IMG/VR virus record: IMGVR_UViG_3300001528_000174
Span: 128,001-180,499 of that record
Strand: one strand, 5' to 3'
Length of the DNA: 52,499 nucleotides
Source: a virus
Taxonomy: Duplodnaviria > Heunggongvirae > Uroviricota > Caudoviricetes
Below, piece by piece: positions 1 to 27,984 of the stretch (its first letter is position 1; each line of letters starts with the position of its first letter). Below the pieces are notes generated by a model that did no database searches, was not told the DNA's origin, and saw only the letters and a program-made list of their open reading frames with translations. The position numbers and the translations under genes were made by a program.

Positions 1-2
1 AA

Positions 3-1046
3 AAAGGAGTATTACTTGATTTATATAAACCAGATGAGCATGGTGAACAATTTTCTTTAACTACTTATAATTCTACAATACTCCCTGGACAAGTACTTCG
101 TTCTGTAAATGTCCAAATAGATAATAAAGCTTTTACTAATCAAATTTTAAATTTTAATTCTGAACAAGGTTTAAAATTTATATAGAAAAATAATAGTACT
201 GTAGATATTACTTAGTTAGATAGTTTAGAAAAGATATTAGTAACAGCTGCTAAAGTATAGGAAGGGTTAAATAAAGGAATTCAGGAAAATTTAACTGAAT
301 TTGTTAATAACCTTAATAACTATAATTATTACTATGTCAATAATGTAGACCAGAGTAAAGGTATGTAGCATATCATTCAATTATAGGAAATATCAAATAT
401 AAAAAGCAATGCTAATAGTCCTATTGGGTGGGTGTCTATGCCTTAGAGATTAACTTATTTTGCTAATAAAATAGAATCTAGGTTTGGAATACCTACATAG
501 GTTTTAAATAAATAGGCTATATCTTAGAATTATGGAGAACAATTTACTGATAAAAAAGCTTTTATTAATAATAACGAAATAATTATTAATGGAGAACTGG
601 CAACTAAATAGGATGTAGCGCATGAATATATGCATATATTTATGGGTATTGTTAAAAGCCAACCTGATTTGCAGGAAGATTATCTAACTCTATTACAAGA
701 TTTAGTAGAAAATACTGAACAAGGATAGTCTTAGTTATAGCAATATCAAAATGTATCAGAATATTCTGATATGGCTAGAATTGATTTATATGAAGAAGTT
801 GCTGCTAATATAATGGGAGAATATTTATCAGCATTAAATCCTAATACTTATCCACAAATATTTAGAGAATTTAGAAAATTTATTCAAAATAATACCTTTA
901 ATTAGGATTTAAAAGAAAATATACTAGATTTCACTGATTTTGCTGTAAATAATACTTATAAAATAAATACTAACAATAAAGAACGTTAGATTACTAATTT
1001 TTTATAGACAGCACTACAAAATAATATTATTAAAGAAATTTGTTAA
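3..1046 (+). CDS. C-terminal part of a large TAG-recoded virion/cargo-type protein with a zincin-like HExxH motif (5' truncated by the window)
   Basis: Frame starting at base 3 has no TAA/TGA until TAA 1044-1046 but about 15 in-frame TAGs. It translates ...DVAHEYMHIFMG...EEVAA (HExxH plus downstream E). Its stop overlaps the next ATG (TAATG). Confidence 0.85.
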
Positions 1047-4000
1047 TGAGTTGTAAATATTTTTTTAATGAGATATCTAAAAAATCGGAAAAAACATATT
1101 AGATACTTCAATAGCTTGTTGGGGATAAAGGTTTATCGTATTTTGAATTACATAATTTAATTTCAGATAATTTAGATTTAACTAATTATAGTGATACTCT
1201 ATTTTCTGCCTAGGAGGATGTTTCTAAAAAATTAACTGAACTAAAAGTATCACACCCTATATTTGATAAATGGGGTAATATAGTAGCAAATGACCCTGAA
1301 TCGGGTGTTTATAATATCTAGCATTTTTTAGATAGTCAATATTTTGACCCAGAGTAGAAGTATTATACTAAAATGAATGATGAAAATTATAAAGATGCTT
1401 TACGAAAAAGAGGATATACAGAGGATTAGATTAATCAAGAATTTGCTCGTTTTAAATTAATTGGAGCTGATGCCTATGCTATTCACTACATAGTTAATAA
1501 TTTAACAATTCCTCATGTAAATGACCCATATACTTGGAATGTATAGGTAGCTACAGTTATTGGTAATAAAATAACAGAATTAGAGCAAGAAATTACTTCT
1601 AGAAAAATAAAAAAACAAAATACTGAATTTCAAGAATCTTTGTTAAATAGTTTTCATAGAGTTTTAGATAGTATAGGTAATCATAATAATTTAGGTTCTC
1701 AAATTTTACAGTCTTTAATTACCACTGCTAAAGAAAATAAAATGGGAACTAATACTAAAAGAATAAGAAATCTTAGTGTTACCCAAGAAATTAAAAATTC
1801 TAATATAAGACTTCGTGGACATATTGATTAGATAATAGTTGATAAATATGGAAATATTTCTATTTATTAGAATGTGGTTTCTAGTTAGTCTTATGATAAC
1901 TGGATAAAAATTAAAAAATAGAAGTTTGAATTAGAATTATCTTTTTTAAAGAAAATGTTACAATCTAAGGGGTTTAATGCTAATAGAATTAGCTTACATT
2001 TAATTCCTACTTAGATAGTATATAATGATGATGGTACTATAAAAGATATTCGTATGGATAAACCTAAAAATATTTAGGTTCAAGGAGAATATCAATTAGG
2101 AGATATTGATGATGCTGTAGAAGCTTATATAGATGCTCCCGATTTAAGCTTTGGAAATATTGACGATAAAGTTCAGACTGCTTTAGATAAAACTAACTTA
2201 ATGTTTTTAAATGCTAATATTACTTAGAATAGAATAACTAAAACTATTGATAGTTATATAGCTTCTCAATATAATCCTAGAACAGGTACTGGAGATATTA
2301 TAAAATTAGAAGATGACCTCCAAGGATATAATTACGCGGTAACTATTGACGGAGAAGTCCATAAAATAAAAGAAGATTCTTTACCAAAAAATAATGAGGA
2401 ATTAAAAGAACTTTTACAAAAAGAGTTTGATAAAAAAGAGAAACAAATAAATACGGTACTTGACACTTTAGTTAAATAGATTCAAGTTGCTCGACATAAT
2501 CCTGAAAATACTACATTTGAAGCTTTTAAGAGAAGTAATTATAGGTTAATTTCTTTACTAGGTAAATATATTGAACCTTCTTATATAGCTGGCGAACCTG
2601 TATATGAATGGAATATTATTAATAATGAAGCTTTAAGAAATGCTCATATTTTATTATTCAAGAATAGTAAGGGACAAATTGACGTAGTTTCACTTGCTAA
2701 TTATAATTTATATGAAGTAAATAAACACAGAAGTAATGGTTCTAATATTATGAATAGTTATATTATGGATAATCAATCAGGTGATTTATATAACTATGAT
2801 TGTTCATTCGGGCATATGGAATAGATAAGAACTTTAAATATACTTAATGAAATATTACCTTCTTTAGATGGTAATTTTAAATTAGGAAACATTCAAATAA
2901 TATCTACATATGGTAGAGGTCAAGGAATGTATAGTACGGCTTCTGATTTAATTACTAAATATTATTCTCCAATATTAGAAGTAGTAAATAAATATAATAA
3001 TGAAATTAAATTAAATAATAATTTTGGAAATATTAATTTTATAGATTAGTATGATTTAGTTTCTAGTTATATAGATGATTTTTTAAAATTATCATCATAT
3101 CTTGATACTAATCCTATTCGATATAAATTAAAAGATGCTAAGGAGCAATTAGAAAATGCTAACTCTGAATCAGCTAAACGTACTGCTTTACAATCATTTT
3201 TAGAATATTTATAGAATAATCCTGTTATAAAAAATTTATAGAATGGAACGTCTGATATAACTTATGCTAATGAAAATACTAAAATGTTAGCTAATATATA
3301 TAATCAAGCTTGTTATGAATATACTAAGTTAATGGGTGTATATGTAGAAACTAAATATAAACCTTTAAGCTGGCTTGAAAGTAATATAATGAAACCTGAT
3401 GCTAATTCGGATAATAATTATAGAACTATTAAATAGATTGTTACCCAAACTACTTTTAGAGCTAATGAAAGAGTAATGAATGCAGCTAATCCTATTTAGA
3501 ATTTTACTAGAGAATATTTTAATAAAGCGGGGTATTCTACAGTTGAAGGTTCCTTAATAGGAGATGAAAATAAATATTTTGATAATATGTTTATGCATAA
3601 TGATAAGGGGGAAAAAATTATGATGTTTAAAAACCCTTATAAAGATGATGCTGCTAACTATATGACTAATAGTGAAAAAACTTTCCTAAAAAGAGCTTTA
3701 TTTGAATTTGCTAAAGTAACTTACTCTATGCATAATAAATCTTTTGATTTTACAAGCTATGAGGATCCAGAATTTGCTAAAGCAGTTGAAGAATAGGAGG
3801 TTCTTCGTTATGTTCCTTTAAAAAGAGCTTCTAGTACTTTATCGGTTAAATCTTTAAAAAATGGAGTGAACCAATTCTTTGATACTATTAAAGGATTTAC
3901 TTCCAAAGAAGATAACGTATTTGCCAAATGGTAGCAAACTCTTGATAAAGAAGGTGCTAATTTATCAATGCGAGATAGATTTGAGAACGGGGTAACTAAT

Positions 4001-5704
4001 CCTTTTGCTTCTAGTATGTCTTCTGATAAAAATGTGAGATAGGAAATATTAAATTAGCATACTAACGATTATTGGGAAACTAATATACCTGCATTACTAT
4101 ATAGTTATATAAACTCTAACGTACTAACTCAGGAATTTAATAAGTCATTAATTTTAGTAAAAGCTGTAATGTTTTAGGCGAAGATGCTAGCTTTAAATGC
4201 TGGAAATCTTAAATATCTTGAATGGTTTTAGAAAGAAGCCGATAAATATTTAACTGTTAATGTGTTTAATGATACTATATTGGAAGATACTTCTAAAAAA
4301 TTCTTTACAGTAATTAATCCAGTGAAACATTTTGTGTCTAAGATGTTTTTAAGTTTTAATATTAAATCAATGTTTAGAGATACTTTAGAAGGATTCCAAT
4401 AGAACTACATTAAAGCAGCTACTAAATATGGTACTGATATTTCTACAGCTAATTTAACTAAAGCTTATAATATAGTAATGAAAGGTTGTTGTTCTAATGT
4501 ACGTACTATATCTTTATTAAATCAATTATGTATTAAATACGGTTTATCTAATTTAGATTTTGCCAATATTGCTAATGGTTTAAGAACAGATAGAAGTGGA
4601 ATTAAACATTGGGACGATATAGCTTATAATACTATGAAGCGCCCTGACTTTCTAAATAGAATGACTTTATTTGTAGCTAGGGCTTTACAAGATGGAACTT
4701 GGGATGCTCTATCAATAGATAAAGATGGTAAAATTAAATATGAGTGGAAAAAAGATAAAAGATTTTAGGATATTACAAAATCTCCTAAAGGTAGTGAAAA
4801 ATATAATAAAGCTAAATCTTTATATTTTTCCGCTATTAGAGCTTATAACAGAGATCATATCGAATCTCCTATTAGCTATAATGATGACTTACCATCTCCT
4901 TATTCGTTAGAAGATATTGATAAAATCAAACAAGTTGCAGATAGTATTTACGGTAATTATGATAGAGGAGGTAGAGCTATGGCTGAAAATATGGCTATAG
5001 GAATGACTTTTGCTTAGTTTACTACTTATTCTAATGGTATTATAGCCAACTGGTTTGGAAAGAAACGAGTTATAAAAGGAGATAAAATGGAGTAGCAAAA
5101 GAATGAAGCTGGATAGCCTTTATATTTTCTAGAAGATGGAACTATTACTACTGAAAATACTGGAGTTCCAGTAATGGATGGTATACCTATGGTAGTACAG
5201 GGAGTATTTCATACATTCGGTGATATATTAGGAATATTATCAGATACTAATTAGGATGATAAAATCAAAAAAATAAAAGAAATGTTAAAAGCTAATCCTA
5301 ATGATGCTGCTAATATTAGAAAAGCCTGGACTAGTTTATTATGGGCACTATTTATGGGAATTCTGTTTAAAGAAGTATTTGACCCGGGTTATAAGGAATT
5401 ATTAAAGTCTTATGATAGTGATGACTATTTAGCCAGCGCTATGACTTATGTTATGTATAATGGAGGTAAATAGTCTACTTAGAATTTCCATGAATTTTTA
5501 GTTATTCCAGAATATTTTGCAGGAACTGGAGATATGAGTAATGGTATGACTATACCTTTTCAAAATTATCCAACATCATTAGTTAAGAATCTTTTTAATA
5601 CAGCTACTAATCCTGATAAGCATTGGGGTGAATATATTGTTAATAATATTCCTTCATTATCTATGTTTAAACAAGCAACTTAGGCTTATTATAAAGAAAA
5701 TTAA
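1046..5704 (+). CDS. Large (1552 aa) TAG-recoded protein, probable crAss-like virion cargo/ejection protein with a degenerate PD-(D/E)xK-like segment and C-terminal hydrophobic helices
   Basis: ATG at 1046 (MSCKYFFNE...) runs to TAA 5702-5704 in one frame, interrupted only by about 35 TAGs by my count. ORF-track fragments 1640, 3587, 4478 and 5282 all lie in this frame. Motif RLRGHIDxIIVDKYGNISIY; hydrophobic LLWALFMGILF near the C-terminus. Confidence 0.85.
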
Positions 5705-5752
5705 AAAAAATAAGGGGCGTAACCCAGGATTTCTCCTGAGCTACGCCCCTTA
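5703..5752 (-). terminator. Intrinsic terminator between the convergent late (+) and replication (-) blocks, possibly bidirectional
   Basis: TAAGGGGCGTA-ACCCAGGA-TTTC-TCCTGAGC-TACGCCCCTTA inverted repeat (5711-5752), preceded by an A8 run (U-tract on the minus strand). Confidence 0.85.
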
Positions 5753-5759
5753 AAATATA

Positions 5760-5972
5760 TTAATACCAATATAAAGTATTAATTAAGTTATCTTCTTCTA
5801 TTAGATCTTTTAATATACTTATATCTATAGTACCAATCATCGTAATTTTTGCATTTGGATTATTAAATAATTCTGGATATATAACTTCAGTATATACAAA
5901 TCCTTTATCAAAATGATTACAGCATTGCTGTGCTTCTATTACATTTACATCTAATAAATTTATTTTAAACAT
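5760..5972 (-). CDS. Hypothetical protein
   Basis: 70-aa ORF overlapping the kinase stop; last gene before the terminator. Confidence 0.6.
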   Translation of the reverse strand: MFKINLLDVNVIEAQQCCNHFDKGFVYTEVIYPELFNNPNAKITMIGTIDISILKDLIEEDNLINTLYWY

Positions 5973-27541: not shown

Positions 27542-27984
27542 TATAAGAGAGATTTAAATATTTTAACAATAGTACCTCTCTGAGCTGTAGGATATTTACT
27601 TTGAACTTCTTCTATAACCATTTTTGTGTCTTTAATAGTTAGAGTGACAGCTTCTTCTAATTCAGAAATTAGCTCATACAGTTCTTGTTCTGACGGCTCC
27701 TTAGGTAGGAACTCTTTAATATAAGTAATCTCGGAAGCTTCTGTGTGCGCTAAATCATTTCTATTAGCCTTTACATAAGCTTCTATAGATTTTTCACGTT
27801 CCTTAATCATTCTTTGAAGAACTTCTATTTCAGCAATCTTTTTGTCAGAATGGCTATTGTTTAATAAAGCTGCTTTAACTAATTGAGCTGTATTTAGTAA
27901 TGTAGTATTGCCATTCTTTCTAAAGCTAATAATTTCGTTATCAATTCTCTTTTCTAATTCTGTTCTATTATCGTCTTTCATCAT
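27541..27984 (-). CDS. GatB/YqeY domain protein
   Basis: VLQRMIKEREKSIEAYVKANRNDLA...E...IKEFLPKEPSEQE matches the YqeY pattern. Confidence 0.85.
   Translation of the reverse strand: MMKDDNRTELEKRIDNEIISFRKNGNTTLLNTAQLVKAALLNNSHSDKKIAEIEVLQRMIKEREKSIEAYVKANRNDLAHTEASEITYIKEFLPKEPSEQELYELISELEEAVTLTIKDTKMVIEEVQSKYPTAQRGTIVKIFKSLL

Follow-up and report, generated by a model that had tools for sequence, protein, structure and literature searches.

Read with translation table 11, the opening 5.7 kb of the window (the whole stretch of 52,499 nt analysed here, which is the final 52.5 kb of the 180,499-bp genome IMGVR_UViG_3300001528_000174) gives only fragments of up to 96 aa, and roughly 100 kb of the genome breaks into fragments under the same table. 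How is this DNA read, and what would allow the phage to read it? In the plus strand, the frame at window 3–1046, whose 5' end is open, contains 16 in-frame TAG, and the frame at 1046–5704 contains 36. Both had been described in the first-pass annotation as open frames with about 50 in-frame TAG in total; on re-translation no TAA or TGA is found in either, and the exact total is 52. The overlap that was said to join them was also confirmed in the sequence, where TAATG at 1044–1048 (+; TAA at 1044–1046, ATG at 1046–1048) couples the two ORFs.

The upstream frame covers the closing 347 codons of a late ORF of 774 codons (genome 126722–129046, +), which contains 30 TAG over its whole length and an HExxH motif (HEYMH, window 621–635) and has no family match in Pfam or PHROG. 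The downstream frame (window 1046–5704, +) encodes P0002, a protein of 1552 aa with 36 TAG, 33 CAA and 4 CAG codons, which is the final gene of the recoded late block. Its residues ~252–330 line up with a PD-(D/E)XK nuclease domain of distant homologs, with the catalytic residues replaced. Profile searches against Pfam, PHROGs and PDB assigned no family to either window protein or to the neighbouring giant ORFs.

The amino acid that TAG stands for was read from homolog DNA taken from related loci in IMG/VR. In 11 distinct relatives (84–87% identity), the cells at TAG positions of P0002 hold TAG (261), CAA (91), CAG (24), AAA (17), AAG (2) and TAT (1); CAA and CAG make up 85% of the changed cells. 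Among the 44 TAG-polymorphic columns, CAA is present in 29 and CAG in 15, and TAG likewise swaps mainly with CAA/CAG in the neighbouring ORFs, including the 774-codon one. In homologs whose gene has no in-frame TAG, column 1324 of P0002 is CAA/CAG in all 8 sequences and column 1350 in 5 of 7, which are Gln positions and not random residues. In distant homologs, the residue profile at TAG columns equals that at CAA/CAG columns, a signal that is diluted when only distant homologs are used. Moreover, in more than 40 related IMG/VR genomes the P0002 homolog is interrupted by TAG only, and the others are uninterrupted or interrupted by TGA only. The exchange in relatives and the conserved Gln columns support the view, considered probable at first pass, that TAG is read as glutamine in the late genes.

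In the whole genome, TAG-rich genes occur only at 31.5–133.7 kb, a block of ~102 kb with genes on both strands, in which 53 long ORFs contain 794 TAG. This block includes lysis genes, terminase, portal, capsid and tail genes and a series of giant ORFs. For example, TerL (phrog_6681, 5e-67), the portal (phrog_6547), a tail protein and a reverse transcriptase are all TAG-rich, and the SLT domain (transglycosylase), the tail lysozyme and the Crass_capsid exon are located within it. The recoded genes are thus late and virion genes, as had been proposed. Their confinement to the plus strand did not hold: the minus-strand genes at genome 31.5–38.9 kb, including the SLT transglycosylase and the tail lysozyme, contain 2–48 TAG each, which makes recoding a property of the module and not of the strand. 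Inside the plus-strand part, homing-endonuclease ORFs and one capsid exon are TAG-free.

In the window, the two blocks converge on a G+C-rich hairpin of 19 bp at 5711–5752 (−26.9 kcal/mol, z = −5.95), beyond which TAG-containing genes cease. A terminator was expected just after the late frames, and a strong hairpin does begin 7 nt past the stop at 5704; its T-run lies on the minus-strand side, so it is first of all a terminator for the minus-strand gene that converges from 5760–5972. From there the early/replication block (5760–52498, −) is tiled by ORFs without any in-frame TAG, and these genes are indeed clean in the standard code. In-frame TAG is also avoided in the minus-strand blocks flanking the recoded block on the genome. 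Counted over stop-to-stop frames, there are 10 TAG in 14,779 early codons and 794 in 31,821 late codons. TAG ends only 7 of 105 early-block ORFs, with the next stop 0–20 codons downstream; the early genes therefore fit both codes, and the claim of two codes that switch at the strand boundary was overstated. Recoding is restricted to the late module, and the early genes are readable in the standard code. The predicted Gln content with TAG as Gln is 5.1% in late proteins and 2.8% in early proteins, a difference that weighs against the explanation proposed below.

This gut phage is crAss-like and probably of the Zeta type, the latter on the basis of its 180,499 bp, its features and its distance to other groups. 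IMG/VR classes the genome as "linear", and CheckV estimates it as 100% complete. TerL, the portal, PF23898 Crass_capsid (28.6 bits; cut-off 27) and tblastn matches at 21–30% identity, almost all to crAss-like phages, agree with the parallel to crAss-like phages drawn at first pass, and the capsid gene contains introns.

Decoding had been expected to need a suppressor tRNA or a release-factor change located outside the window. A domain search found neither RF-1/RF-2 (PF00472) nor GlnRS (PF00749) in the whole genome. The genome contains 13–19 tRNA genes; tRNA(CUA) was not found by ARAGORN with default parameters or by Rfam at the gathering threshold, and ARAGORN at very low thresholds returned only noise for it. 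The intact tRNA(CUA) of relatives, 72–73 nt long, matches this genome as two halves at 30744–30778 and 30998–31035 (gene 30744–31035, +), outside the window and at the recoded block's opposite edge, which supplies the tRNA-CUA candidate that the first-pass annotation had called for. Between anticodon bases U35 and A36 lies an ORF-less insert of 219 nt. When the halves are joined in silico, they form a canonical cloverleaf that ARAGORN calls tRNA(cta). Compared with intact alleles, the T stem has a compensatory change from A50-U64 to U50-A64, which together with the intact exons indicates continued selection on the split tRNA(CUA).

The intact allele occurs in 21 contigs, and the same tRNA(CUA) is used by all 5 relatives examined. 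A second genome (L094), recovered only with a gapped pattern, contains the same split allele with an intron 97% identical, and a search of IMG/VR did not find the exact exon-intron junction of our genome anywhere else. Gln identity is not evident from the suppressor's own sequence. A 15-nt stretch of its D arm also occurs in the phage tRNA-Gln(UUG); a derivation from that tRNA is not supported, because their overall identity is no higher than that to other phage tRNAs. Two further candidates were set aside. An "intron-containing tRNA-Asp" called by ARAGORN in a relative (G004) is without group I signal and probably false. A YqeY-domain protein (window 27544–27984, PF09424) is not linked to recoding as a suppressor-charging helper, because the domain is present in 3 of 5 relatives that recode TAG and also in 4 of 5 whose P0002 homolog is free of in-frame stops.

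The insert is probably a small self-splicing group I intron. A U precedes the 5' splice site and pairs with G of GGAG in P1, and the intron ends in G. P1, P2, P3, P4/5, P5a, P6, P7, P8, P9.0 and P9 show full complementarity and follow the canonical order, and the core agrees with the Intron_gpI consensus of Rfam around GACUA and GAUGAAGA.AUAGUC. The Rfam score is only 17 bits (gathering score 50; E = 0.074), while 18–20 bits were used for bacterial tRNA introns by Williams 2020, since bacterial sequences are missing from the Rfam seed. The minimum free energy fold recovers the acceptor stem, the D arm, P1, P2, P3, P5a, P6, P8 and P9, with a z-score of only −1.42 for the pre-tRNA. The insertion is clean compared with the uninterrupted alleles of relatives, and the two intron alleles, at 97% identity, differ too little to reveal covariation. 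A further locus (L096) shows a possible, partial match to the intron core.

We propose that these 5.7 kb form the distal end of a recoded late block in a crAss-like phage of the Zeta type, where UAG means Gln and translation is gated by a phage tRNA(CUA) that would be matured by group I self-splicing, and we give this reading a probability of about 0.85. The early blocks, in which in-frame TAG is avoided, could be translated by an unmodified host ribosome. The late block would be translatable only when the phage amber-suppressor tRNA(CUA) is available, which would make UAG a translational gate on the late genes. The mature suppressor would be produced by RNA self-splicing of the 219-nt intron and presumably charged by host GlnRS.

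Several other explanations were weighed against this reading. That the region is decaying, non-functional DNA, or that its frames are open by chance, is suggested by the fragments obtained with table 11 and is already refuted: TAA and TGA are 10.9% of codons in the two alternative frames of this strand, which gives a probability of ~1e-78 for a 1552-codon frame free of both, and in more than 50 genomes homologs are conserved over the full length, at identities as low as 24%, with never more than one kind of interrupting codon per gene. A different amino acid for TAG (e.g. Lys, Glu, Tyr or pyrrolysine) is very improbable. Some TAG cells do exchange with AAA/AAG or GAA, and ARAGORN labels the tRNA "Pyl", a label that it gives to any CUA tRNA. 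Against this, Lys and Glu are the usual substitutes for Gln, CAA/CAG dominate the changed cells of P0002, the standard-code homologs have Gln at conserved TAG columns, and the compact tRNA-Pyl features are all absent from the suppressor.

The remaining two explanations accept UAG as Gln and concern how and when it is decoded. The split tRNA(CUA) may be dead, with UAG decoded by a suppressor of the host or of a co-infecting phage, or by the phage's odd tRNA-like genes. The intron's Rfam score below threshold would fit a dead gene, as would three more tRNA-like genes with anticodon-arm inserts (L002:2268–2389, 2720–2803 and 3234–3314) and published surveys in which no suppressor is detectable for many recoded phages (PMC7886860). 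None of these three genes has a CUA anticodon, however, and both exons are intact with a compensatory T-stem change, the insert has every group I helix, U(−1) and the terminal G, a second genome has the same allele, and the relatives examined all rely on the same tRNA; we consider a dead gene unlikely, though it is the strongest of the alternatives. Somewhat less probable still is the absence of any temporal switch, with UAG read as Gln throughout infection in a host without UAG termination or with the suppressor present from the start. The early genes would tolerate UAG read-through because backup stops lie 0–20 codons downstream, and the temporal order is something we infer. The near exclusion of TAG from early codons, against its abundance in late ones, would be expected only when early genes have to be translated ahead of suppression, and the standard code is reported for the hosts of recoded gut phages (10.1101/2021.08.26.457843).

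Recoding itself is already well documented, and our observations match Yutin 2021, Borges 2021/22 and Peters 2022; it matters mainly for annotation. The split suppressor goes beyond published descriptions, is the only unusual point here and matters more. We put at about even odds the stricter claim that the amber suppressor unlocking ~800 late TAG is a split gene whose anticodon is assembled only by group I self-splicing. If true, it would be, within the literature searched, the first group I intron reported from a tRNA gene of a phage, and would explain in concrete terms why the suppressor tRNA is "missing" from some recoded phages. It could also add a guanosine- and Mg2+-dependent ribozyme step to the early-to-late code switch, and the whole late programme would then depend on a ribozyme. 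As a remedy for undetected suppressors, we suggest seeking tRNA halves that flank small group I introns.

Late-gene recoding of TAG or TGA is known from Zeta crAss-like phages of 145–192 kb with many introns (PMC7886860, Yutin et al. 2021). With the amber members of this group (PMC7886860; Zeta survey 2025, PMC12386605) our genome shares its 180.5 kb size, sense TAG in late genes only, distantly crAss-like TerL, portal and MCP, many tRNAs, many group I introns including those in the capsid gene, a reverse transcriptase near tail genes, and early TAG stops followed by another stop. In the surveyed genomes tRNA(CUA) was called directly or was reported to be undetectable, whereas here it is present and split by an anticodon intron. 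Proteomics has proven code 15 in crAss-like phages (PMC9523058, Peters et al. 2022); those phages also have TAG as Gln in structural genes and come from the human gut, but belong to other lineages and are peptide-validated. In the code-change module of Borges et al. (10.1101/2021.08.26.457843), who described the gate model and detected suppressor tRNAs in only 40% of TAG-recoded phages, standard-code-compatible early genes likewise accompany recoded lysis and structural genes, with a suppressor tRNA at the edge of the recoded block adjoining lysis-type genes. Our genome differs in having no RF2 or aminoacyl-tRNA synthetase gene and in a tRNA that needs splicing. Surveys ascribe the remaining suppressor-less phages to host factors or undetectable tRNAs.

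According to a 2014 review, all phage group I introns then known were in protein-coding genes (PMC3984707). The insert described here resembles the group I introns of tRNA anticodon loops in its size class (~200–250 nt), its lack of an ORF, its site in the anticodon loop, the U at −1 and the terminal G, in exons able to pair as acceptor and anticodon stems, and in a low Rfam score, which is typical of them. It differs from them in that its host gene is a phage amber suppressor and in its insertion between positions 35 and 36.

In the first 5704 bases of the window, translation table 11 gives only ORF fragments of at most 96 aa on the + strand. When TAG is read as sense, two + strand frames appear: a late ORF at 3-1046, open at its 5' end at the window start, with 16 in-frame TAGs, and the ORF of the 1552-aa protein P0002 at 1046-5704, with 36. 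No in-frame TAA or TGA was found in either on re-translation, as the first-pass annotation had claimed, and the TAATG overlap said to join them can be read in the sequence at 1044-1048 (+). In the other two + strand frames, 10.9% of codons are TAA or TGA, which puts the chance probability of a 1552-codon frame without them at ~1e-78. The frames were also described as ending just before a terminator. A 19-bp hairpin (5711-5752; -26.9 kcal/mol, z = -5.95) does lie immediately 3' of the stop of 1046-5704, but with the T-run located on the minus-strand side, it is mainly the terminator of the converging gene at 5760-5972. From 5760 to the window end, the minus strand is tiled by ORFs without in-frame TAG, which agrees with the clean reading in code 11 reported before.

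Full-length homologs of P0002 were found and their DNA was taken from IMG/VR. The gene is interrupted by TAG only in 34 loci (9-50 per gene), uninterrupted in 11 and interrupted by TGA only in 2. In 11 distinct relatives (84-87% identity), the cells aligned to P0002 TAG codons are TAG (261), CAA (91), CAG (24), AAA (17), AAG (2) and TAT (1), and the reverse comparison in these relatives gives 190 CAA and 33 CAG. Among the 44 TAG-polymorphic columns, 29 contain CAA and 15 CAG, and the three neighbouring ORFs, including the one ending in the window, likewise favour CAA/CAG at TAG. In homologs without in-frame TAG in the gene, TAG column 1324 is CAA/CAG in 8 of 8 and TAG column 1350 in 5 of 7. 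Distant homologs alone give a diluted signal, in which the residue profile of TAG columns is that of CAA/CAG columns, not of Tyr, Trp, Leu, Lys or Glu columns. From the above, the earlier suggestion that TAG is probably Gln is borne out, and we assign Gln to TAG in the late block with a probability of about 0.95.

Neither window protein matches a curated family. The 774-aa late protein carries a zinc-peptidase-like HExxH motif (HEYMH; window 621-635). P0002 residues 252-330 (window 1799-2035) are PD-(D/E)XK nuclease-like: in distant homologs, the aligned segment is a PDDEXK_1 domain. At the catalytic Asp column this genome has TAG/Gln, most recoded Zeta relatives have Asn and standard-code homologs have Asp. 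This genome also has Val in place of the catalytic Lys, and the predicted nuclease is thus probably inactive. The two genes end the giant-ORF block, a position occupied in crAss-like phages by the "transcription" block of large proteins (PMC7886860), and it is from position only that we infer a virion location.

The whole contig is 180,499 bp (window: bases 128001-180499), rated 100% complete by CheckV, with ends classed as linear in IMG/VR. A map of stop-to-stop frames, with TAG counted as sense, gives TAG-free minus-strand genes at genome 1-31.5 kb and 133.9-180.5 kb, and TAG-rich genes on both strands at 31.5-133.7 kb. Recoding had been thought limited to + strand late genes. The late-zone restriction stands, but the strand rule does not: minus-strand genes at genome 31.5-38.9 kb, including SLT transglycosylase and phage tail lysozyme, hold 2-48 TAGs each. 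Recoded + strand genes extend from 39 kb onward, including the terminase large subunit (TerL; phrog_6681, 5e-67), portal (phrog_6547), tail protein and reverse transcriptase, and the zone finishes with a + strand run of ORFs of 585-2650 codons, the two window ORFs last. Portal and TerL match crAss-like phages almost exclusively (21-30% identity), which marks the phage as crAss-like.

The TAG-free ORFs within this zone are homing endonucleases (phrog_314; LAGLIDADG) and a capsid exon. Two group I introns on either side of the Crass_capsid exon (genome 80507-81743; L005:507-719 and L005:1533-1743 in our stretches of the genome; Rfam 70 and 77 bits) split the major capsid gene; immediately upstream is a homing endonuclease ORF (L004:17866-18966). 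A LAGLIDADG ORF (PF03161, 9e-33; genome 123353-124291, L007:3353-4288) lies in a 1.2-kb insert interrupting the giant late ORF at genome 115334-126728, which relatives such as L008 have as one uninterrupted frame. The reverse transcriptase (genome 54732-56006, L003:14732-16003; phrog_1423, 3e-114; RVT_1) adjoins tail and tail-fibre genes, which suggests a diversity-generating retroelement, as reported from some Zeta phages.

Late ORFs (31,821 codons) contain 693 CAA, 130 CAG and 794 TAG, and early ORFs (14,779 codons, counted from stop-to-stop frames) 311, 92 and 10. With TAG as Gln, Gln content is 5.1% in late versus 2.8% in early proteins; the late block has an unchanged CAA+CAG frequency, with TAG in addition to these codons and not in place of them. 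Only 7 of 105 early minus-strand ORFs (>=80 aa) end in TAG, and read-through adds 0-20 codons to the next TAA/TGA (one has TAG directly followed by TAA). Because TAG stops are few and backup stops this near, the early blocks are readable under both codes, in agreement with a Zeta survey (PMC12386605). Of the "one genome, two codes" proposed earlier, the late block indeed needs TAG as sense, while the early blocks fit both readings.

A suppressor tRNA or release-factor change had been expected outside the window. The window contains no tRNA gene, none of the 13 ARAGORN tRNAs of the whole genome has a CUA anticodon, and a genome-wide domain search found no RF-1/RF-2 or GlnRS. For the tRNA, the genome holds a candidate gene in two halves. 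Intact tRNA(CUA) is present in all five relatives examined, and the 73-nt tRNA(CUA) of close relatives matches this genome at 30744-30778 (nt 1-35) and 30998-31035 (nt 36-73), with collinear flanks and a 219-nt insert (30779-30997) between anticodon U35 and A36. Joined in silico, the halves form a regular cloverleaf called tRNA(cta) by ARAGORN, whose T stem carries a compensatory change (A50-U64 to U50-A64) relative to intact alleles; ARAGORN intron mode flags the locus as "tRNA-His(atg) i(34,217)". By gapped pattern scan of IMG/VR, the split allele occurs in one further genome (L094; intron of 223 nt, 97% identical) and the intact allele in 21 contigs. Its locus is a small + strand island of short ORFs, flanked by the left early block on one side and by recoded, minus-strand lysis-type genes on the other; the split gene is likely the functional suppressor.

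In the whole genome, Rfam further reports three odd tRNA-like genes, a tmRNA-like match and the two group I introns. The tRNA-like genes (L002:2268-2389, L002:2720-2803, L002:3234-3314; genome 22268-23314) lie on the minus strand within the tRNA array, with anticodon arms lengthened by 10-48 bases, mismatched T stems, Rfam tRNA scores of 40-47 bits and no default ARAGORN call. None has a CUA anticodon; for one of them, the homologs in relatives receive a tRNA(UUA) call and have a long variable arm. The tmRNA-like match (L001:16249-16632, minus, left early block; RF00023, 54 bits, gathering score 47) has no ARAGORN call. A YqeY-domain protein (PF09424, 62.9 bits; window 27544-27984, minus, early block) was considered as a TAG-decoding helper and set aside, since the domain is found in TAG-recoded relatives and equally in those with a P0002 homolog free of in-frame stops, and so shows no link to TAG decoding.

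The insert shows the features typical of group I introns. The 5' exon ends in U, paired with G of GGAG in the P1 hairpin, and the last base of the insert is G. Helices P2 (GCGA loop), P3, P4/5, P5a (GUAA loop), P6, P7, P8, P9.0 and P9 are fully complementary and in canonical order, with P3' directly after P7 and P7' after a J8/7-like AAGAA. The MFE fold gives the acceptor stem, D arm, P1, P2, P3, P5a, P6, P8 and P9 (z = -1.42). The alignment of its core (AGAGACUAUA; GAUGAAGAAAUAGUC) to the Rfam model reaches no more than 17 bits (E = 0.074); the Rfam seed is without bacterial introns, and 18-20 bits is a working threshold for tRNA introns (Williams, 10.1101/2020.01.27.920355). A regulatory role of the putative intron, rather than that of a selfish passenger, seems quite unlikely.

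In the proposed mechanism, the unmodified host apparatus would translate the early genes, and the phage would then provide tRNA(CUA), in this genome only after self-splicing. Charged with Gln, presumably by host GlnRS, it would make 53 long late ORFs readable through TAG only from then on. TAG-to-Gln recoding of late genes is already known from crAss-like phages. According to a 2014 review (PMC3984707), all phage introns known by then were in protein genes, and our literature search turned up no group I intron described for a phage tRNA gene or a suppressor tRNA; as this search was limited, novelty is claimed tentatively. The phage resembles the Zeta group of crAss-like phages (PMC7886860; PMC12386605) in genome size, tRNA arrays and introns, and the assignment is made from these features. 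Compared with the gating model already published (10.1101/2021.08.26.457843), the ribozyme step would be the addition of this genome.
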